Positions 19,565 to 52,085 of a stretch of 64,000 nucleotides of DNA are shown here, in pieces. The translations under genes were made by a program, and so were the position numbers. Numbering within the stretch: position 1 is the first letter of the stretch; the number at the start of each line of letters is the position of its first letter. This DNA is from an uncultured Christensenella sp. (GTDB lineage Bacteria; Bacillota; Clostridia; Christensenellales; CAG-138): NCBI GenBank assembly GCA_964383635.1, contig CAYLIG010000001.1, forward strand, positions 8,361 through 72,360, read 5' to 3'. Under the pieces are notes generated by a model. That model saw nothing but the letters and a program-made list of their open reading frames with translations, ran no database searches and was not told the DNA's origin.

Positions 19565-20194
19565 ATGGAACAGAGATCCTCGCTGAAAAGCGTATTTTTC
19601 AACGGTTTGATCACCGAAAACCCTACGTTTCGGCTCGTGCTTGGCACCTGCCCGACCATGGCGGTGACGACCAGCGCGACGAACGGAATCGGCATGGGCG
19701 CGGCGGCGACGTTTGTGCTCGTCGGCTCCAACATCGTCATCTCGATGCTGCGGCATTTCATTCCGGACAAGATCCGCATCCCGTCGTTCATCATCGTCAT
19801 CTGCACGTTTGTGACCATGGTGCAGATGTTCATGAACGCTTTCTTGCCCGCGCTGTACCAAAGCCTCGGCATCTTCCTGCCGCTGATCGTGGTCAACTGC
19901 ATCATCCTCGCGCGGGCCGAGGCGTTCGCGAGCAAAAACCCCGTGCTGCACAGCGCGGTGGACGGCATCGGCATGGGCATCGGCTTCACCATCGCGCTCA
20001 CGCTGATCGGCAGCATCCGCGAACTGCTCGGCAACGGCACGCTCTTTGGAACGCAGGTGTTCGGCGCGAACTATCAGCCGATGCTGCTTTTGATCCTGCC
20101 CGCCGGCGGATTCATCGTGTTCGGCCTGCTGCTTGCGCTGTTCAACGCCGTGAGCATGAAGGCCGGTAAGCGGAAGGAGGCGAAGAGCGAATGA
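19565..20194 (+). CDS. rnfE: Rnf complex subunit E
   Basis: NPTFRLVLGTCPTMAVTTSATNG and LGIFLPLIVVNCIILARAEAFA are typical RnfE/NqrD motifs. Confidence 0.9.
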   Translation: MEQRSSLKSVFFNGLITENPTFRLVLGTCPTMAVTTSATNGIGMGAAATFVLVGSNIVISMLRHFIPDKIRIPSFIIVICTFVTMVQMFMNAFLPALYQSLGIFLPLIVVNCIILARAEAFASKNPVLHSAVDGIGMGIGFTIALTLIGSIRELLGNGTLFGTQVFGANYQPMLLLILPAGGFIVFGLLLALFNAVSMKAGKRKEAKSE

Positions 20195-43668: not shown

Positions 43669-45561
43669 TCAGGAGAGCTCGAACATGCCCATGTAGAGCT
43701 GGTAATACTTGCCCATCTGGGAGAGCAGATCGTCATGGTCGCCGCGCTCGATTACCTCGCCGCGCTCCAGAACAAGTATGGCGTTGCTGTTGCGAACCGT
43801 CGAGAGCCGGTGCGCGATGACGAACACCGTGCGCCCCTTCATCAGCCGATCCATGCCTTTTTCAATCAGCGATTCCGTGCGCGTGTCGATGCTGCTGGTC
43901 GCTTCGTCCAGAATCAGCACCGGCGGGTTGGCGACCGCCGCGCGCGCGATGGCGAGCAGCTGGCGCTGCCCCTGCGAAAGGTTTGCGCCGTCGGCGGTGA
44001 GCACCGTGTCGTAACCCTGCGGCAGATGCTTGATGAACGAATGCGCGTTGGCGAGCTTTGCCGCTTCGACGATCTCGTCGTCCGTCGCGTCCAGCCGCCC
44101 GTAGCGGATGTTGTCCCGCACGGTGCCGGTGAAGAGATGCGTGTCCTGCAGCACCATGGAAAGCGAGCGGCGCAGGGAGTCCTTTTTAATTTGCTTGATG
44201 TCGATGCCGTCGTAGGTGATGGACCCGCGCTGCACGTCGTAGAAGCGGTTGATGAGGTTTGTAATCGTCGTCTTGCCCGCTCCCGTAGAGCCGACAAACG
44301 CAATCTTCTGGCCGGGTTTGGCGAACAGGTTGACGTTTTTGAGCACATCCACCTTGCCGTCATAGCTGAAGGTGACGTCGTGGAAGCGCACGTCGCCCCG
44401 GAGCTCGGCATACTCGAATTCACCGTTTTCCAGCGAACGCTTCCAGGCCCACTGGTTGGTGCAGCAGTTCACCTCGTGAAGAACGCCGGACTCGTCCCGC
44501 TCCACGTTGACGAGCGTGACCGTGCCTTCGTCTACCTCCGGCTCGGCGTCTATGAGCTCAAAGATGCGCTCCGCGCCGGCCAGCGCGCTGACAAAGCCGT
44601 TGAAGAGCTGCGAAACCTGCACGAGCGGCTGGCTGAACGAGCGCGTGTATTGCAGGAACGCGGCAAGCGTGCCGATGTCCGCGCGGCCGAGGATTGCGAG
44701 CCCCGCGCCTGCCGCGGCAGCCGCCGCGTAAAGCGCATAGCTGAGGTTGCCCATGATGGGCATGAGCACCATGGCGTAGGTCATTGCGGAGGTGGAGGTC
44801 TGCCGGAGTTCTTCGTTGCGTTTTTCAAACTCGCCTGAGACATACTGCTCGCGGCAGAACACCTTGACCTCGCGCTGGCCTTCGATCATCTCTTCAATAT
44901 AGCCGTTGACGCCCGCCAGCGACTTTTGCCGCTTGCTGAAGAAGAAGGCGGACTTCTTGCCGAGCTTCTGCACCACGAGCAGCATGAGCGCGAACACGAC
45001 AAGCACGAGCGCCGTGAGGATCGGGGAGAGCACGAACATCATGAGGAGCACGCCGATGACCGTAATCGTGCTGGTCAGCAGCATCGGCAGACCCTGGCTG
45101 AGCATGTCGCGCAGCGCGTCCGTATCGTTGGAAAAGCGGCTCATGATCTCGCCGTGTGTCTGGGAGTCAAAATAGCGCAGCGGGAGCTTTTCGAGCTTGG
45201 TGAACATATCCACGCGAACCGCTTCAAGCGTCGCCGTGGAGACGTTGACGACGAGCCGGTTGACGATGTAGGTCGTCAGCGCGCCCATTCCGTAGACCGC
45301 CGCGAGGATCGCGATGTATCGGAAGAACACCGTAAAGTCCGTGGACTTCGTCTGCAGCATCTGCCCGATCTGGTTGATGATGGGCTTGAGCAGGTAGGTA
45401 CCCGCAACGCCCGCGCCCGCCGAAACGAGCAGGCCGACCACAATGATGATCAGACTGATCGTGTGAGGCTTGAGATAGCCGAACAGCCGGCCAAAGGTTT
45501 TCGCCGTGTTTTTCGGCTTGCTATGCGCGCCGTGCGCGCCGTGCGACATTGGACCCGGCAT
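43669..45561 (-). CDS. ABC exporter half-transporter (TMD-NBD), consensus-site subunit
   Basis: Walker A GSTGAGKTT and Walker B VLILDEATSSID, but signature LSQGQRQL (degenerate). Six-TM exporter-type N-terminal half. Confidence 0.85.
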   Translation of the reverse strand: MPGPMSHGAHGAHSKPKNTAKTFGRLFGYLKPHTISLIIIVVGLLVSAGAGVAGTYLLKPIINQIGQMLQTKSTDFTVFFRYIAILAAVYGMGALTTYIVNRLVVNVSTATLEAVRVDMFTKLEKLPLRYFDSQTHGEIMSRFSNDTDALRDMLSQGLPMLLTSTITVIGVLLMMFVLSPILTALVLVVFALMLLVVQKLGKKSAFFFSKRQKSLAGVNGYIEEMIEGQREVKVFCREQYVSGEFEKRNEELRQTSTSAMTYAMVLMPIMGNLSYALYAAAAAAGAGLAILGRADIGTLAAFLQYTRSFSQPLVQVSQLFNGFVSALAGAERIFELIDAEPEVDEGTVTLVNVERDESGVLHEVNCCTNQWAWKRSLENGEFEYAELRGDVRFHDVTFSYDGKVDVLKNVNLFAKPGQKIAFVGSTGAGKTTITNLINRFYDVQRGSITYDGIDIKQIKKDSLRRSLSMVLQDTHLFTGTVRDNIRYGRLDATDDEIVEAAKLANAHSFIKHLPQGYDTVLTADGANLSQGQRQLLAIARAAVANPPVLILDEATSSIDTRTESLIEKGMDRLMKGRTVFVIAHRLSTVRNSNAILVLERGEVIERGDHDDLLSQMGKYYQLYMGMFELS

Positions 45562-45562
45562 G

Positions 45563-47290
45563 TTACGCCACCCCCTTTTGCTGCGAAGTGTAGACTTCGC
45601 GATAGATTTCGTTGGTTGCCATAAGCTCCTCGTGGGTGCCCACGCCGTTGATGGCGCCGTCGTTGAGCACCACGATGCGGTCCGCGTCCATCACGGAGGT
45701 GATGCGCTGGGCGATGATGATCGTCGTCGCGTCCCCGTGCTTTTCGGCAAACGCCGCGCGGATGGCCGCGTCCGTCGCGGTGTCCACCGCGCTGGTCGAG
45801 TCGTCCAGAATCAGTATCTTCGGGTTTTTCACGAGCGCCCGCGCGATGCAGAGGCGCTGCTTTTGCCCGCCGGAGACGTTGACCCCGCCCTGGCCGAGCA
45901 TCGTGTCGTAGCCGTCCGGGAAGGAACGGATGAAGCTGTCCGCCTGCGCCGCCTGGCACGCGGCGACGAGCTCGTCGTCCGTCGCGTCCGGGTTGCCCCA
46001 GCGGAGATTTTCCTTGATCGTGCCGGAAAACAGCACGTTTTTCTGGAGCACCATGCCGATGGCGGCGCGCAGCGTGTCGATTTTATAGCTGCGCACGTCG
46101 TGATTACCGACGAGCAGCTCGCCGGAGAGCACCTCATATAGCCGCGGAATCAGCTGCACCAGCGTGGTCTTGGCCGAGCCGGACCCGCCGATGACGCCTA
46201 TGGTTTCGCCGGAGCGGATCGAAAGATTGACGTTTGAAAGCGTGAGGTTTTGCTTGTCTTCGGCGTAGCTGAAGCTCACGCTGCGAAACTCCACGCTGCC
46301 GTCGGCAACCGTCAGCGATGCGTCCGCGCCGTCGTCGTTGATGGCGGGCGTTTCGTCCAGAACCTCGATGATTCGCTTGGCGGAGGCGCTGGATAGCACG
46401 ATGTTGACGAACACCATCATGATCATCATCAGGGACATGAGAATCTGCGTGATGTAGCTGATGAAGCTCATCAGCTGGCCGGTCATGAGATTGCCCGCAA
46501 GGATATCCCGCCCGCCGACATAGAGCACGAGCAGGATGCTCGCATACATCGTCAGCTGCATAAACGGCATGGTGATGACGAGCACCTTCTCCGCGCGGCG
46601 CTGTGCGGTCTTAAGCGCGGCGGCCGCGTCCTTGAATTTTACGGACTCATAGTCTCCGCGGACAAACGCCTTGACCACGCGGATGGCGACGAGATTTTCC
46701 TGCGTGCGCGCGTTCATGCTGTCATATTTTTTCAGCATCGCCTCAAAGCGCGGAAACGCGATTTTGGTCAGCAGCGCCATCATGCCCGCCAGAATGGGAA
46801 TCGCGCTGAGGATGATGACCGAAAGCCGCGGACTGATGCGATATGCCATCACCGTCGCGAGGATGAGCATAAACGGCGCGCGCGCGAGCATGCGGATGAT
46901 CATCTGAAATGCGTTTTGAATATTGTTGACGTCGTTGGTCAGCCGCGTGATGAGCGACGGGGTCGTGAAGCGGTCCGTATTCTTAAAGGAAAACGACTCG
47001 ATCTTTTCGAACAGACCTTTTCTGAGGTTTTTCGCCATGCCGTTGCTGGCAACGACCGCAACGCGCGCGCAGAGCGCGCCGAAGATGAGCGCGCCGACGG
47101 CCATGAGCACCATGAGTCCGCCCATCTTGAGGATGTAGCCGAAATCCTGGTTGGGGATGCCGACGTCCACTATCTTGCCCATGTAGAGCGGAATGAACAC
47201 CTCCAGCACCACCTCGAAAAGAACGAGGATGGGCGAGAGGAGCGCCTGCGTCTTATATTTGCCAATAAAGGCGGAGAGTTTTTTAATCAT
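45563..47290 (-). CDS. ABC exporter half-transporter (TMD-NBD), degenerate-site subunit
   Basis: Walker A GGSGSAKTT, signature VSGGQKQR, and Walker B ILILDDSTSAVD (catalytic Glu replaced by Asp). Its stop lies immediately before the partner gene's start. Confidence 0.85.
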   Translation of the reverse strand: MIKKLSAFIGKYKTQALLSPILVLFEVVLEVFIPLYMGKIVDVGIPNQDFGYILKMGGLMVLMAVGALIFGALCARVAVVASNGMAKNLRKGLFEKIESFSFKNTDRFTTPSLITRLTNDVNNIQNAFQMIIRMLARAPFMLILATVMAYRISPRLSVIILSAIPILAGMMALLTKIAFPRFEAMLKKYDSMNARTQENLVAIRVVKAFVRGDYESVKFKDAAAALKTAQRRAEKVLVITMPFMQLTMYASILLVLYVGGRDILAGNLMTGQLMSFISYITQILMSLMMIMMVFVNIVLSSASAKRIIEVLDETPAINDDGADASLTVADGSVEFRSVSFSYAEDKQNLTLSNVNLSIRSGETIGVIGGSGSAKTTLVQLIPRLYEVLSGELLVGNHDVRSYKIDTLRAAIGMVLQKNVLFSGTIKENLRWGNPDATDDELVAACQAAQADSFIRSFPDGYDTMLGQGGVNVSGGQKQRLCIARALVKNPKILILDDSTSAVDTATDAAIRAAFAEKHGDATTIIIAQRITSVMDADRIVVLNDGAINGVGTHEELMATNEIYREVYTSQQKGVA

Positions 47291-47341
47291 GCGTCTTATA
47301 GTTCCTTCATAAAATTGGAATGCTTTCCTCGGTTCCTGCGG

Positions 47342-47818
47342 TTAAGGAAGGCAGTGCTTATACGCGCCGTCCATTGAGGCGAGCATCGCAAGGTCTTCCT
47401 CGGTTGCTATATTTTGAATCATGCGGTTTAGCATGTTCTCGAGCAGCGCCATTTCCTCCTCGGAAAACCCGGCGAACGTCTCGCGGTCCACGCGGTCCGC
47501 CAGCGTGCGAAACGAGTTCACGACCTCCTGCCCGGCGGGAGTGATGCGAAGACGGTTTTTGCGCAGATTGTCCGGGTCGCTGGTCTTTTCCAGAAGGCCG
47601 GCGCTCTGCAGGCGTTTGGTCGACTGCGCGACCGAAGCGGGGGAGACAAAGAGCATGGCCGCGAGATCCTGCTGCGTCGCGTCAGGGTGATTGCTCAGGT
47701 AGTTCAGCAGCGGGTATTGCCCCGGCACGATGTCGTGCTCGCTGTTTGCTCCGTGCATCAGCCTGCGGCGCAGCAGATTCAGCAGCATGACGCGCTTTCC
47801 CAGTGCATGCAGTTCCAA
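47342..47818 (-). CDS. MarR family transcriptional regulator
   Basis: TTG 47818 after AAGGAGGAA. The winged-helix region QQDLAAMLFVSPASVAQSTKRLQSAGLLEKTSDPDNLRKNRLRITPAG is typical of MarR. Confidence 0.85.
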   Translation of the reverse strand: MELHALGKRVMLLNLLRRRLMHGANSEHDIVPGQYPLLNYLSNHPDATQQDLAAMLFVSPASVAQSTKRLQSAGLLEKTSDPDNLRKNRLRITPAGQEVVNSFRTLADRVDRETFAGFSEEEMALLENMLNRMIQNIATEEDLAMLASMDGAYKHCLP

Positions 47819-47844
47819 GTGGATTCCTCCTTAGTTCAGAATAA

Positions 47845-47863
47845 TTAACCGTTTAACAGTTAA
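47845..47863. promoter_or_regulatory. Candidate MarR operator (TTAAC-CGT-TTAACAGTTAA)
   Basis: 11-bp palindrome TTAACAGTTAA at 47853-47863 plus an extra TTAAC at 47845-47849. Located between the marR promoter -10 and the SD. Confidence 0.45.
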
Positions 47864-47872
47864 GCGCTTATC

Positions 47873-47923
47873 AATATAACAGGCGGGCTTTTTATTGTCA
47901 AGTTTCTTTTTAGATGGTATGAT
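47873..47923. promoter_or_regulatory. Back-to-back divergent promoters sharing the -35 region (marR operon on minus, hflX on plus)
   Basis: Minus strand: TTGACA (47896-47901)-17-TATATT (47873-47878). Plus strand: TTGTCA (47895-47900)-17-TGgTATGAT (47915-47923). Confidence 0.55.
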
Positions 47924-48000
47924 ACGCGTAAGCGCAAAAAACGCCGCAAATCCGGCGAAAAACGCAATTGTGAAGAAACGGAAACATTCAGAAAACACGC

Positions 48001-49767
48001 ATGAAACATGAGATTCACGGCAACGTCGGCGGCATTCGGGACATCGTGCTCAACGAGATGCTGCTGCTTTACGACATGGAGATGTCGGCGGACGAGTTCC
48101 TCTCCGACGAGGTCTGCGACGCGCTGGTGCGCTTTACGTCCATCATCAACCGCGAGGTGCTCGTCTACGTTTCCCGCGTCGGCAAGATCGAGGACGTTCG
48201 CGTGGGGGACGACCACTCCGTGCATATGGACGAGATGCGCCTTGTGCGCAACATCGACCGTCTCAGCGGCGTTCGGTGCATCCACACGCACCCGAACGAC
48301 ACGGGGTACCTTTCGGATGTGGATATCGGTTCGCTCAACGCGCTGCGCCTCGACGCGATGTGCGCCATCGGCGTCAGGGAAGGCCGCGCGAGCAGTGTTT
48401 ACGCCGCGTTCATCGGGGACATGGAGGGCGAGGAGCGCGTGCCCGTCTGGTACGGGCCGATGCGCGCGCACCATCTGCCGCAAAGGCAGCTCATGGACGC
48501 GATTACGGAGGCAGACAAGCGGCTTTTAACCGACACGTACAATATCATCGAGATCAAGCCCGACCGTGCGGTACTTGCGGGAATCGAATCCTCGGACGGC
48601 TACGACACGCTCTCCGAGCTGGCGGAGCTCTGTGAGACGGCCGGCATCAAGGTTGTCGCCAGGGAACAGCAGCGCCGGCGCGCCGTGGACGCGGCGACCT
48701 ACATCGGCAGCGGAAAGGCGGAGGAACTCGCGCTGACCGCGTCCGCCTGCGAGGCGGATATCTTCGTCTTCGACGACGAACTCACCGCCGTGCAGCTTCG
48801 AAATCTCGAGCGGATACTGGGGCTGCCGATCGTCGATCGCACGATGCTGATTCTGGACATCTTCGCCCAGCGCGCGCAGTCGCGCGAGGGCAAGCTGCAG
48901 GTGGAGCTTGCGCAGCTCAAATACCGTCTGCCGCGGCTTCTTGGCATGGGCAAGGTGCTTTCGCGGCAGGGCGCTTCCGGCGTCGGCATGCGCGGGCCCG
49001 GCGAAAAAAAGCTGGAAATCGACCGCAGACGCATCAGACGACGTGTCTTTGAGCTGGAGCAGGAGCTTGCGGAGATTGAAAAACAGCGGGGGCTCAGACG
49101 CGCCAAGCGCGCGGCGAACCCGATTCCCGTCGTCGCGCTCGTCGGCTACACCAACGCGGGCAAGTCGACGCTTCTAAATCTGCTCTCCGGCGCGGACGCG
49201 CTGGCGGAGGACAAGCTCTTTGCAACGCTCGATCCCATCGTGCGAAAGGTCACGCTGCCAAACGGTACGGAGTGCCTCATCAGCGATACGGTCGGGTTCA
49301 TCAACAAGCTGCCGCACGATCTCGTGAACGCGTTTCGCTCCACGCTGGACGAGGTCTGCGACGCGGACCTGATCCTGCACGTCGTGGACTGTTCCAGCGA
49401 CTACTACGAGGTGCAGATGCGCGTGGTGGAGGAGGTGCTCGGTTCGCTCGGCGCGCTGGAAACGCCGCGCGTCGAGGTCTACAACAAGATCGATAAACCC
49501 GAGGCCAAGCCAAAGAACAACGGCGGCGTCGCCATCAGCGCGGCGCTGGGCACGGGCGCAGACGAACTGCTGCGCGCCATAGAGGAGGCGCTTGCCAAAA
49601 CCCAGGTGCGTCTGGAAATCGTCGTGCCGTATGAAAAATACGCCGCGCTGCAGATGATCCGCCAGACGGCGACCATCCTTTCGGAAACGCACGAGGAGGA
49701 CGGCACGCATATGACGCTGCTGATCAACGAAAGCGAAACCTGGCGCATCAAAAAGGCGATCTCCTGA
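48001..49767 (+). CDS. hflX: GTPase HflX with N-terminal JAB/MPN-like extension
   Basis: HflX core: LAQLKYRLPRL, GPGEKKLEIDRR, G1 GYTNAGKST, G3 DTVGF, G4 NKID. The first ~180 aa are extra and contain HTHPNDTGYLSDVD. Confidence 0.85.
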   Translation: MKHEIHGNVGGIRDIVLNEMLLLYDMEMSADEFLSDEVCDALVRFTSIINREVLVYVSRVGKIEDVRVGDDHSVHMDEMRLVRNIDRLSGVRCIHTHPNDTGYLSDVDIGSLNALRLDAMCAIGVREGRASSVYAAFIGDMEGEERVPVWYGPMRAHHLPQRQLMDAITEADKRLLTDTYNIIEIKPDRAVLAGIESSDGYDTLSELAELCETAGIKVVAREQQRRRAVDAATYIGSGKAEELALTASACEADIFVFDDELTAVQLRNLERILGLPIVDRTMLILDIFAQRAQSREGKLQVELAQLKYRLPRLLGMGKVLSRQGASGVGMRGPGEKKLEIDRRRIRRRVFELEQELAEIEKQRGLRRAKRAANPIPVVALVGYTNAGKSTLLNLLSGADALAEDKLFATLDPIVRKVTLPNGTECLISDTVGFINKLPHDLVNAFRSTLDEVCDADLILHVVDCSSDYYEVQMRVVEEVLGSLGALETPRVEVYNKIDKPEAKPKNNGGVAISAALGTGADELLRAIEEALAKTQVRLEIVVPYEKYAALQMIRQTATILSETHEEDGTHMTLLINESETWRIKKAIS

Positions 49768-49826
49768 ATAGAAGACGGACGACGCTCCGGTTTATTGCAT
49801 GAAACGCCGGAAATTTGAACATCACA

Positions 49827-49850
49827 AAAGCCGCCCCGCGGGGCGGCTTT
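49827..49850. terminator. Bidirectional intrinsic terminator (hflX / nadE)
   Basis: AAAGCCGCCCC-GC-GGGGCGGCTTT. Confidence 0.75.
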
Positions 49851-49871
49851 GCCATATGCGTCAGTGTGTTG

Positions 49872-51758
49872 TTATTGAAAGGCGCTGGGCTGCGCGTCGC
49901 TCGGCATGCGCCAGTCTCCGCGCGGGGAGAGCGCGACGTTGCCGATGCGCGGGCCGTCCGGGATGCAGTTGCGCTTGAACTGCTGGGAGAAAAAGCGGCG
50001 GATGAACAGCGCGTACCATTTTTCGATGGTCGCGTCGTCGTAATCCCCGTCAAAGGCGTACTTCGCCAGACGGATAATTTTTCCCTTGCCCGCGCCGCGG
50101 CGAATCATGTGGTAGAGGAAAAAATCATGCAGTTCGTACGGCCCGATGAGATCCTCCGTCACCTGCGCGATGGCGCCGTCCTTGGTCGGCAGCAGCTCGG
50201 GGCTCACCGGCGTGTCGACGATGTCGATCAGCACATCCCGCAGCGCGTCGCCGGATTTGCCCGCGATGTGGCGCAGCATGGCGCGAATCAGCGTCTTCGG
50301 CACGTCCGCGTTGACGCCGTAACTGGACATATGGTCGCCGTTAAACGTTGCAAATCCCAGCGCGAGCTCGCTCAAATCGCCTGTGCCGATCACGAGGCCG
50401 TTATACATGTTGGCAAGGTCCATGAGCACCTGCGTGCGCTCGCGCGCCTGCGCGTTTTCATAGGCCGCGTCGTGCAGGTCCATCGAATGGCCGATGTCCG
50501 AAAGGTGCTGCTTCACGCTCTCGCCGATCTGGATTTCGCGCATCGTTATGCCCAGCGCGTTGCAGAGTTTTTCCGCGTTGCCGCGCGTGCGGCTCGAGGT
50601 GCCAAAGCACGGCATCGTGACCGCGACGACGTCCTCCGCAGGGCGATCAAGCAGGGCGAGCGCTTCTTTTGCGACGATGAGCGCGAGCGTGGAGTCCACG
50701 CCGCCGGACACGCCGATGAGCAGCTTCTTCGCGTTTGTGTGCTTGATACGCTGCTTGAGGCCGTGACTCTGTATGGCGAGCACCTGATCAAAGCGCGTCG
50801 CCGCGCTTTCGGGGATATCCGGCACAAACGGGGTTTTCCAGAAGTTTCGCGTGAGTTTGGTTTGAGAAACGTCCATTGAAAACGGGATGCGCAGGATGTC
50901 CGTGTTGTCGAAGAGCTTTCGCGCAAAGCGCCTGCGCTCGCGGGAGAGAAACTCGAGATCGACCTCGCTGGCGCAATAGCCCTCGCCAAACGGCTTTGAC
51001 TCCGCGAGAAACACGCCGTTTTCGCAGATCATGTCGTGGCCGGAGAAGACCACGTCCGTGGTGCTCTCACCGTTGCCCGCGCTGCAGAAGACATAGGCGG
51101 AGTTTGTGCGCGAGCTTTGGGACTGCACGAGCACGCGGCGGTAGTCCACCTTGGTGACCGCTTCGTCGCTCGCGCTGAGGTTGAGAAGAATGTTTGCGCC
51201 GCAGTCCGCCAGCAGCGTGGACGGGGGTACCGCCGCCCAGAGGTCTTCGCAGATCTCCACGCCGACGTTGAAGAGCGGCATTTCGCGACAGCAGAACACG
51301 AGACGGTTGCCAAACGGCGCCTTCTGGCCGAAGAGCTCCATCTCCTCGATGGTCTCCAGCGCGGCGGCGTAGGTGCGCTTTTCATAAAACTCGCCGTAGT
51401 TGCCGAGATGCGTCTTGGGGATAACCCCCAGCACGCGCCCGTTTTGCACGACGGCGGCGCAGTTGTAGAGCAGATGCCCGAATACGATCGGCACGCCGAT
51501 GGCGACGAGCATGTCGCTGCCGCTCGTTGCGCGCGTAATGCGCTCCAGCGCGAGCATCGCCCTGTCCGTCAGCGCGGTGCTGAGCACGAGATCGCCTGAC
51601 GTGTAGCCGACGATGACGAGCTCCGGCAGCACGAGCACCTTGACGCCGTCCGCTTCCGCGCGGCGGATGATGCCGATGACCGCGTCCGCGTTGTACTCGC
51701 AGTCCGCAACCCGTATCTCCGGCGTTCCGGCGGCAACCTTGACAAATCCGTCTTTCAT
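49872..51758 (-). CDS. nadE: Glutamine-dependent NAD+ synthetase (nitrilase domain + NAD synthetase domain)
   Basis: ATG 51758 after GGAGAAAAAG. N-terminal CN-hydrolase domain (VLVLPEL...EICEDLW). C-terminal SGGVDST PP-loop. Confidence 0.9.
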   Translation of the reverse strand: MKDGFVKVAAGTPEIRVADCEYNADAVIGIIRRAEADGVKVLVLPELVIVGYTSGDLVLSTALTDRAMLALERITRATSGSDMLVAIGVPIVFGHLLYNCAAVVQNGRVLGVIPKTHLGNYGEFYEKRTYAAALETIEEMELFGQKAPFGNRLVFCCREMPLFNVGVEICEDLWAAVPPSTLLADCGANILLNLSASDEAVTKVDYRRVLVQSQSSRTNSAYVFCSAGNGESTTDVVFSGHDMICENGVFLAESKPFGEGYCASEVDLEFLSRERRRFARKLFDNTDILRIPFSMDVSQTKLTRNFWKTPFVPDIPESAATRFDQVLAIQSHGLKQRIKHTNAKKLLIGVSGGVDSTLALIVAKEALALLDRPAEDVVAVTMPCFGTSSRTRGNAEKLCNALGITMREIQIGESVKQHLSDIGHSMDLHDAAYENAQARERTQVLMDLANMYNGLVIGTGDLSELALGFATFNGDHMSSYGVNADVPKTLIRAMLRHIAGKSGDALRDVLIDIVDTPVSPELLPTKDGAIAQVTEDLIGPYELHDFFLYHMIRRGAGKGKIIRLAKYAFDGDYDDATIEKWYALFIRRFFSQQFKRNCIPDGPRIGNVALSPRGDWRMPSDAQPSAFQ

Positions 51759-51806
51759 ACCGTTTCTTTTTCTCCGATCGTTTGTGTGCAAAGATTTCCC
51801 ATGCTC

Positions 51807-51835
51807 ATTTTATGGCAGGACCGGGGTGATGTCAA
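51807..51835 (-). promoter_or_regulatory. nadE promoter TTGACA-17-TAAAAT
   Basis: Minus strand reads TTGACA tcaccccggtcctgcca TAAAAT. Confidence 0.55.
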
Positions 51836-51970
51836 TTCTCACGCGCGCGCAGGCTTGTGTAAAACATGAACTGTTCGCAGCCTTTGAACGCGTGCGTTGC
51901 AATGTTTGCGCGCGGCGGATTTTGTAAAGCCGCCGTCTGCGCATCGTAACAATATTGTGAAATCGGGTCG

Positions 51971-51984
51971 GATTGCGCGCAATC
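51971..51984. promoter_or_regulatory. Perfect 14-bp palindrome GATTGCGCGCAATC at the -35 position of the ABC-transporter promoter
   Basis: The palindrome lies 25 nt upstream of the extended -10 TGgTATAAT (52007-52015). Confidence 0.35.
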
Positions 51985-52085
51985 GATACCGTCAAACTGA
52001 TATCTATGGTATAATGGCAGGGAAAATTTGCCCTGAAGCGCAGGCGAAGATTCGCGCGGCTCAGGGGGGGCGCAAGGAGTACCGT

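Follow-up and report, generated by a model that had tools for sequence, protein, structure and literature searches.

A putative JAB/MPN+ metallohydrolase domain at the N-terminus of the ribosome-splitting GTPase HflX in Clostridia

The subject of this study is the gene hflX on a 64,000-nucleotide stretch of contig CAYLIG010000001.1 (assembly GCA_964383635.1) from an uncultured Christensenella sp.; the whole of this stretch is referred to as the window. Its open reading frame (ORF) at 48001..49767 (+) encodes a 588-aa protein in which a JAB-like N-terminal domain (N-domain) is followed by a canonical HflX. On balance, we favour the reading that residues 1-186 are a very divergent, catalytically intact JAB/MPN+ member fused to the ribosome-splitting HflX, with a proposed action on the ribosome. 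We regard homology of the N-domain to the JAB superfamily as very probable and its enzymatic activity, as suggested by the sequence, as likely; that a peptide or isopeptide on the ribosome serves as its substrate is a more tentative proposal that we would hesitate to call probable. The single-ORF fusion was conserved across a large clade of Bacillota, the residues of the E...HxHx7Sx2D signature were almost never substituted, and the predicted fold had the JAB order of elements, with Glu before strand 2, HxH at a strand end and SxxD at a helix start. Together, the results supported the existence of a very divergent JAB/MPN+ family that occurs widely as a fusion to HflX and has so far escaped annotation.

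The long-form HflX and its JAMM-like motif

The features of the gene and the evidence on which each was placed were as follows.

48001..49767, + strand: complete long-form hflX gene, 588 codons plus stop (ORF listing, TIGR03156, start shared by homologues)
48001..48558, + strand: N-domain, residues 1-186, unannotated JAB/MPN+-like family (family conservation, profile matches, AlphaFold2 (AF2) model)
48106..48465, + strand: predicted JAB core, residues 36-155 (DSSP on the AF2 model, Foldseek matches)
48154..48156, + strand: codon of E52, putative general-base Glu of the JAMM site, just ahead of strand 53-58 (codon; E in 250/251 homologues; aligned with the RadC Glu)
48205..48270, + strand: loop of about 20 residues, 69-90, with conserved basic R80, R83 and R87 (predicted local distance difference test score (pLDDT) 71-85, no regular secondary structure)
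48283..48324, + strand: H95-T-H97-P-x6-S105-x2-D108, putative Zn ligands H95, H97 and D108 with S105 as the putative oxyanion Ser (translation, conservation, AMSH alignment)
48481..48552, + strand: long C-terminal helix of the N-domain, residues 161-184, running nearly straight into the first ND1 strand (AF2 secondary structure)
48607..49110, + strand: HflX N-terminal domain GTP-bdg_N, residues 203-289, and helical middle domain GTP-bdg_M, residues 291-370 (PF13167, 3.5e-31; PF16360, 5.7e-29)
49132..49731, + strand: HflX G domain MMR_HSR1, residues 378-496, and HflX C-terminal domain, residues 507-577 (PF01926, 3.5e-21; PF19275, 2e-06)

The protein is an HflX, though not of the enterobacterial equivalog type. 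In the NCBIfam scan, TIGR03156 (GTP_HflX) matched residues 191-531 at 2.6e-134 with 447.6 bits, above its equivalog cut-off of 216.75, and PF13167, PF16360, PF01926 and PF19275 were present in that order, whereas the cut-off of NF008280 (E. coli-type 'ribosome rescue GTPase HflX') was missed at 309 versus 441 bits. As in canonical HflX and HflXr (E. coli, Listeria), residues ~187-588 comprise ND1, the helical domain, the G domain and the C-terminal domain. The first ND1 strand, DRAVLAGI, presumably starts at about residue 187, judged by eye against E. coli HflX and not by a tool alignment. A first-pass annotation, made from the letters of the window and its ORFs, had placed the beginning of the HflX core near residue 185, and this agreed with the start of TIGR03156 at 191, of GTP-bdg_N at 203 and of the ND1 strand. 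The N-terminal sequence M-K/E-x-x-I/V-x-G-N was common to the homologues.

Translation of the ORF put E52 at nt 48154-48156 and gave H95-x-H97-x7-S105-x2-D108 for IHTHPNDTGYLSDVD (nt 48280-48324), with H95 at 48283-48285, H97 at 48289-48291, S105 at 48313-48315 and D108 at 48322-48324, exactly where the first-pass annotation had them. The catalytic signature of JAMM enzymes, E-x(n)-H-x-H-x7-S-x2-D, was thus complete, and the 43 residues from E to H lie within the known JAMM range (~45 in AfJAMM, ~55 in AMSH-LP). The chance expectation of the regular expression H.H.{7}S..D was ~8e-4 per protein of that composition, and it occurred twice in the six-frame translation of the window. The second match, HRHLDAAAFHSGQD, at ~19732-19773 (+), fell in ORF 19565-20194, an Rnf/Nqr membrane subunit (PF02508, 1.3e-69). 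This copy is coincidental and shows, as a control, that the bare expression is not diagnostic. By itself the motif is no more than the chance expectation across a genome, and the case must therefore rest on conservation, fold and profile evidence. The recurrence within the window also speaks for the reading that the motif arose by convergence or chance on an unrelated fold and that the N-domain is no JAB/MPN homologue, a reading that the evidence below made very improbable.

All five JAMM residues were invariant in 19 of 19 close homologues (51-92% identity). The motif was present in 43 of 46 full-length representatives, the exceptions being one with x6 spacing and two proteins that are not HflX. 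When 45 representatives with 28-44% identity to the query were aligned, 11 columns were invariant, E52, H95, H97, S105 and D108 among them. The hmmalign-based count over all collected sequences bore out the expectation of the first-pass annotation for long HflX proteins, with all five residues kept in 242 of 246 N-domains; the remaining four were single substitutions in metagenomic fragments. The five residues ranked among the nine most conserved columns of the N-domain in this count, with E52 in 250/251, H95 in 253/254, H97 in 253/254, S105 in 251/251 and D108 in 250/251 sequences.

Some residues outside the JAMM signature equalled the catalytic ones in conservation. R59 (48175-48177) and D118 (48352-48354) were conserved in 100% of ~250 sequences, and G7, G61, G69, L88, R92, T96 and P98 were likewise highly conserved. 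R83 was found in 235/243 and R87 in 224/255 homologues; both are situated in the loop beside the active site, with R92 opening the next strand (48247-48276). The conserved non-JAMM residues could form a substrate-binding or RNA-binding surface.

The family proved to be large, with carriers among Clostridia-type bacteria both of the gut and of the environment. A profile search of 1.84 billion representatives retrieved 940 clusters at the 50% identity level with a cut-off of E<=1e-3 and 506 under the stricter cut-off of E<=1e-10, and full-length members had 580-620 aa, the length of long HflX. At least 410 species genomes were matched even with two narrow peptide patterns, and all counts of related loci given here refer to the best 80 of these. 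A single ORF of ~588-600 aa with the motif intact was found in 78 of the 80 loci. The best 80 genomes were all Clostridia (Christensenellaceae, Oscillospiraceae, Eubacteriales), the closest being Christensenellaceae/Christensenellales metagenome-assembled genomes with up to 94% identity; more distant members came from Phascolarctobacterium (Negativicutes) and unclassified Bacillota. Relatives were named only 'hypothetical protein' or 'GTPase HflX' in public records, and their precomputed Pfam annotation left the N-domain uncovered throughout. A word-indexed homologue search with the N-domain returned almost only truncated fragments, and its counts are no guide to domain architecture. Fusions of the N-domain to Trans_reg_C (OmpR-type), AIRS_C and Ribosomal_L16 (P0386, P0391 and P0397) were set aside: the N-domain breaks at about residue 155 in these sequences, which come from metagenomic contigs of ~1-7 kb, and they look like chimeric assemblies and not real architectures.

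Two proteins from outside the window, P0085 (1090 aa) and P0115 (869 aa), were related to the N-domain without being HflX. An LptE-type lipoprotein N-terminus (PF04390) is followed in both by 4-5 tandem HflX-N-like domains that have lost HxH, S and D (e.g. FIRTGFDGKGIS, LIHFNPHKSRVS). By their sequences they are catalytically dead paralogues, probably sited in the cell envelope. Since the LptE-fused paralogues keep the fold signature without the catalytic residues, retention of these residues in HflX points to selection for chemistry.

A description of an HflX fusion to a JAB, JAMM, MPN or metalloprotease domain, or of a JAMM protein in ribosome splitting or rescue, was not found in the open literature (non-open literature, InterPro and CDD lay outside the scope of the search). 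Nor does a fusion to HflX appear in the two Aravind-group surveys of JAB domains in prokaryotes, and the passage on the HflX extension in PMC12493154 does not state what that extension is.

Remote relationship to JAB/MPN families and the predicted fold

Profile comparisons linked the N-domain to the JAB clan mainly through its relatives. In a member-wise Pfam scan of 45 diverse members, Prok-JAB was matched by 31 (best ~1e-3) and RadC by 13, and outside these two no Pfam family was matched by more than 2 members. The JAB models of PADLOC, an independent library, matched 19, 15 and 6 of the 45. The gathering score of JAB (PF01398), Prok-JAB (PF14464) or RadC (PF04002) was reached by no match. 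The check by hidden Markov models (HMMs) that accompanied the first-pass annotation was thus borne out in part, with JAB-clan matches in the relatives, all sub-threshold, and none for the window protein at E<=10. The sole sub-threshold match of the window protein, Pertussis_S2S3 (E=0.04), did not recur in the relatives and was dismissed.

The top PDB sequence matches were the JAMM isopeptidases AMSH, AMSH-LP and Sst2, aligned exactly on the motif, with IHTHPTQTAFLSSVD of AMSH/AMSH-LP matching IHTHPNDTGYLSDVD residue for residue. The E-value against PDB sequences fell from 0.2 with a single sequence to 0.07 with a 14-sequence profile and to 0.001 with a 45-sequence profile (AMSH-LP). However, similarity to these eukaryotic deubiquitinases was limited to ~40 residues around the active site, with E=0.001 at best, and the AMSH-specific insertions Ins-1 and Ins-2 were not recognisably conserved in the N-domain. 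We know of no ubiquitin system in the host lineage.

A second comparison was made with a RadC-JAB reference profile built from real E. coli YicR homologues. RadC/YicR-type JAB proteins (PF04002) are bacterial and carry the same catalytic signature, and in hhalign the N-domain stayed in register with their profile all the way from the Glu to SxxD (63 columns, P=5.6e-4): E52 was paired with the conserved Glu of RadC (in R-E-I), and HTHP..LS..D with HNHPSG..PS..D. The score was 31.5 against 13.0 +/- 3.0 for the shuffle null (maximum 26.6), and 0 of 200 column shuffles reached it (~6 standard deviations (SD)). The two families differ in that the N-domain has HTHP instead of HNHPSG, lacks the C-terminal SFAERG/FAERG signature of RadC and is without the helix-hairpin-helix (HhH) N-terminal module of RadC-like proteins (PF04002 + PF20582). 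Neither RadC nor other JAB genes were found in the 80 related loci or the window. Lambda gpK was tried as a Prok-JAB reference and rejected as a poor template; the annotated protein begins inside the JAB domain, and only the 20-residue motif was aligned.

The fold was predicted with AF2 without templates. A 14-sequence alignment yielded a model with pLDDT 78.8 and a 45-sequence alignment one with pLDDT 93.3 and a predicted TM-score of 0.88. By DSSP, the core of the model consisted of helix 36-49, E52, strands 53-58 and 62-68, a loop, strand 91-97, helix 106-114 and strands 119-126, 129-137 and 149-154. H95 and H97 were located at the end of strand 91-97, and S105 and D108 at the start of helix 106-114. 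The model thereby followed the MPN order of helix, Glu, two strands, an HxH-ending strand, an SxxD-starting helix and three strands, which is the canonical order known from AfJAMM and AMSH-LP. The loop 69-90 was the least confident part of the model and may, from its position, correspond to the JAMM 'Ins-1'. Two extra N-terminal helices and the long helix 161-184 flanked the core, and this last helix ended 2-3 residues ahead of the first ND1 strand, with the start of ND1 judged by eye.

In a Foldseek search of the PDB with the first model, MPN/JAB proteins made up 38 of the top 40 matches, among them SRU_2040 (2kcq, the best match), AMSH, Rpn11, CSN5/6, PfJAMM1, RadC (2qlc), BubCD, BRCC36 and Npl4; the other two were a deaminase and a plant complex. 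MPN/JAB proteins still headed the list obtained with the second, higher-confidence model. The structural prediction of the first-pass annotation thus held for topology and for the ranking of MPN/JAB proteins, while the TM-scores of 0.3-0.5 remained weak.

Prok-JAB (PF14464; SRU_2040/2kcq, archaeal JAMM1/5ld9, CBASS Cap3-type) was among the known families closest to the N-domain: it shares E...HxHx7Sx2D and a similar domain size, gave the most frequent weak HMM match (31/45), was echoed by the PADLOC JAB matches and provided the best Foldseek match. In contrast to Prok-JAB, the N-domain scored below the gathering threshold, has two additional helices at its N-terminal end and a long connector helix at its C-terminal end, and is fused to a translational GTPase, whereas Prok-JAB stands alone or beside genes for ubiquitin-like proteins (Ubl) or E1/E2 enzymes.

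Several results weighed against our reading. Residues 1-190 of the window protein had no Pfam or NCBIfam JAB match even at E<=10, and every family match of the relatives was below the curated cut-offs (best E ~1e-3). The weak HMM matches were all driven by one short conserved core, and the family members are mutually non-independent. The hhalign probability against RadC was 30%. Foldseek superposition was weak (E 1e-3 to 1e-2, TM 0.22-0.54, root-mean-square deviation 6-8 A, with probabilities up to 1.00), and the rise in pLDDT from 78.8 to 93.3 brought no better Foldseek scores; the weak TM therefore reflects real divergence or extra elements and not model quality. The missed thresholds, the TM-scores below 0.5 and the single segment shared by non-independent matches are also what an unrelated fold would lead one to expect. 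Yet independent lines of evidence concurred: the template-free AF2 topology put Glu, HxH and SxxD on the canonical elements, the Foldseek lists were dominated by MPN/JAB and not by other alpha/beta folds, and hhalign aligned 63 columns that include the distant Glu at the correct spacing and beat 200 of 200 shuffles. The JAB/MPN+ domain that the first-pass annotation had proposed on HflX was therefore supported by family profiles, the AMSH-LP match at E=0.001, hhalign, AF2 topology and the Foldseek list. Judged by the profiles, the JAB relationship is remote and not a routine family assignment.

Proposed action on the ribosome and competing readings

By analogy with JAMM enzymology, H95, H97 and D108 would bind Zn2+, E52 would activate water and S105 would stabilise the tetrahedral intermediate. 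The site of action is suggested by work on other HflX proteins. HflX ND1 is located on the 50S intersubunit face, where it displaces H69, and a mycobacterial extension ahead of ND1 touches uL16 and H38 and reaches the H69-H71 junction (PMC12493154). Since the last N-domain helix runs straight into ND1, the hydrolase would be held near that region when HflX-GTP is bound, so that binding of GTP-HflX may bring it to the intersubunit face of the 50S subunit, in the vicinity of uL16, H38 and H69-H71. Iyer et al. 2011 (PMC3239186) argue that a substrate must be long and narrow to enter the JAB cleft, which leaves extended peptide tails and single-stranded nucleic acids. The enzyme might hydrolyse a ribosome-bound substrate held in an extended conformation, the likeliest target being the amide or isopeptide bond of a protein tail or of a ribosome-bound factor, and subunit splitting would be coupled to an irreversible chemical step that makes rescue irreversible.

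In its full form this proposal describes a bifunctional HflX in a large clade of Bacillota: by GTP-dependent binding and splitting, a Zn-dependent JAB hydrolase would be brought to the intersubunit face of the 50S subunit and would cleave a ribosome-bound substrate there irreversibly; we put it forward as a possibility, and a doubtful one. Candidate substrates are a hibernation or silencing factor, a ribosomal-protein tail or a lysine acylation, and further candidates are a nascent-chain or peptidyl-tRNA linkage and single-stranded rRNA or tRNA. Two points told against our preferred reading. The ribosomal placement is drawn by analogy with a mycobacterial extension of 39-58 aa and not with a 186-aa domain, and no small beta-grasp, ThiF or E2 gene flanks hflX in the window, where its neighbours are a marR-ABC exporter cassette and nadE. 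In the 80 related loci, conservation was checked for three window neighbours, with no systematic Ubl/E1/E2 scan. Its neighbours set the window hflX apart from the Ubl-coupled JAB systems (Mec+/CysO, QbsD, CBASS Cap2/Cap3, Bil/Bub), which have adjacent Ubl or E1/E2 genes.

The mycobacterial protein is also instructive as a comparison. It too has extra sequence ahead of ND1, 39-58 aa long, which has no enzymatic motif and acts by disordering rRNA (PMC12493154), whereas the extension described here is a 186-aa folded domain with a complete predicted metallohydrolase site. An active JAB-fold hydrolase could carry the rRNA-disordering role a step further, into chemistry, by binding or cutting single-stranded rRNA (H68-H71) or the 3' end of tRNA. 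Several observations are in keeping with such an activity: RadC was matched by 13 of 45 members and aligned in register by hhalign at ~6 SD above the null, RadC (2qlc) was among the top Foldseek matches, the loop flanking the active site and its immediate vicinity contain the conserved basic R83, R87 and R92, HflX ND1 is naturally surrounded by rRNA helices (PMC12493154), and the JAB pocket, as Iyer et al. 2011 (PMC3239186) argue, is suited to single-stranded nucleic acid, RadC-type JAB domains being probably nucleases. However, the peptidase-type models (Prok-JAB with 31/45, CBASS Cap3-type PADLOC JAB) matched more members than RadC did, the best PDB sequence matches were the isopeptidases AMSH and AMSH-LP, and no HhH or other nucleic-acid-binding module was found in the N-domain. 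To our knowledge, nuclease activity of RadC has never been demonstrated, which also counts against a nucleic-acid substrate, and we consider such a substrate quite unlikely.

Attached only a few residues away from ND1, a 20-kDa domain would probably collide with the 30S subunit in the 70S ribosome. The N-domain might thus be mainly structural or regulatory, serving without turnover as an intersubunit wedge for splitting or anti-association, as a Zn sensor or as an autoinhibitory module; its conserved site would then bind a metal either for stability or for sensing. The mycobacterial extension works without catalysis (PMC12493154), the non-catalytic copies in LptE-fused proteins indicate that the domain can serve as a binding module, and the lack of a partner or substrate gene in the window neighbourhood is best accommodated by this explanation. 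On the other hand, a scaffold has no need for a general-base Glu or an oxyanion Ser, yet E52 and S105 were kept in 250/251 and 251/251 sequences, and MPN- scaffolds typically lose their catalytic residues, as the LptE-fused paralogues do. We regard a mainly structural or regulatory role as unlikely and retain the catalytically intact JAB/MPN+ domain as the preferred reading.

Genomic neighbourhood and significance

Upstream of hflX lies a divergent marR-ABC exporter operon (45563-47818, - strand) and downstream the convergent NAD synthetase gene nadE, and hflX looks monocistronic. The marR-hflX intergenic region of 182 nt contains one promoter candidate for hflX.

47895..47923, + strand: tentative sigma-70-like promoter candidate for hflX, TTGTCA, 17 nt, TATGAT, with TG extension (consensus scan only)

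This candidate is situated 78 nt upstream of the ATG. Back-to-back with it, a TG-extended candidate for marR, TTGACA-17-TATATT, was seen at 47873-47901 (-). Since the two candidates overlap, co-regulation is suggested, and MarR could co-regulate hflX. No Rfam leader, riboswitch or attenuator was found in 45000-52000. Among the related loci, the marR and ABC exporter genes adjoined long hflX in 40 of 80 (within the range L001-L059, plus L075). In L045-L059 the cassette was downstream on the same strand, rather than upstream and divergent, and it was absent in L058 and in L060-L080 save L075. The cassette thus varies in position yet adjoins hflX, so that the linkage survives rearrangement; it may point to a drug or stress response that the two have in common.

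HflX and HflXr have been studied as factors of ribosome splitting, hibernation reversal and macrolide/lincosamide resistance, and every current mechanism of HflX known to us is purely mechanical, a GTPase-driven rearrangement. The finding reported here rests on sequence and models and is a domain-fusion prediction, probably a surprising one to a specialist in ribosome rescue. At the least, it reveals a sizeable domain family that lies outside Pfam and NCBIfam coverage and is hidden under the name 'GTPase HflX'. With a conserved, apparently active metallohydrolase on HflX in hundreds of species, many of which are gut Clostridia (Christensenellaceae and Oscillospiraceae, for example), ribosome rescue would gain a chemical step, and the JAB/JAMM superfamily would extend to a ribosomal context without a ubiquitin-like partner. 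If the bifunctional reading is true, this would be the first case of a JAMM-family enzyme that works directly on bacterial ribosomes.

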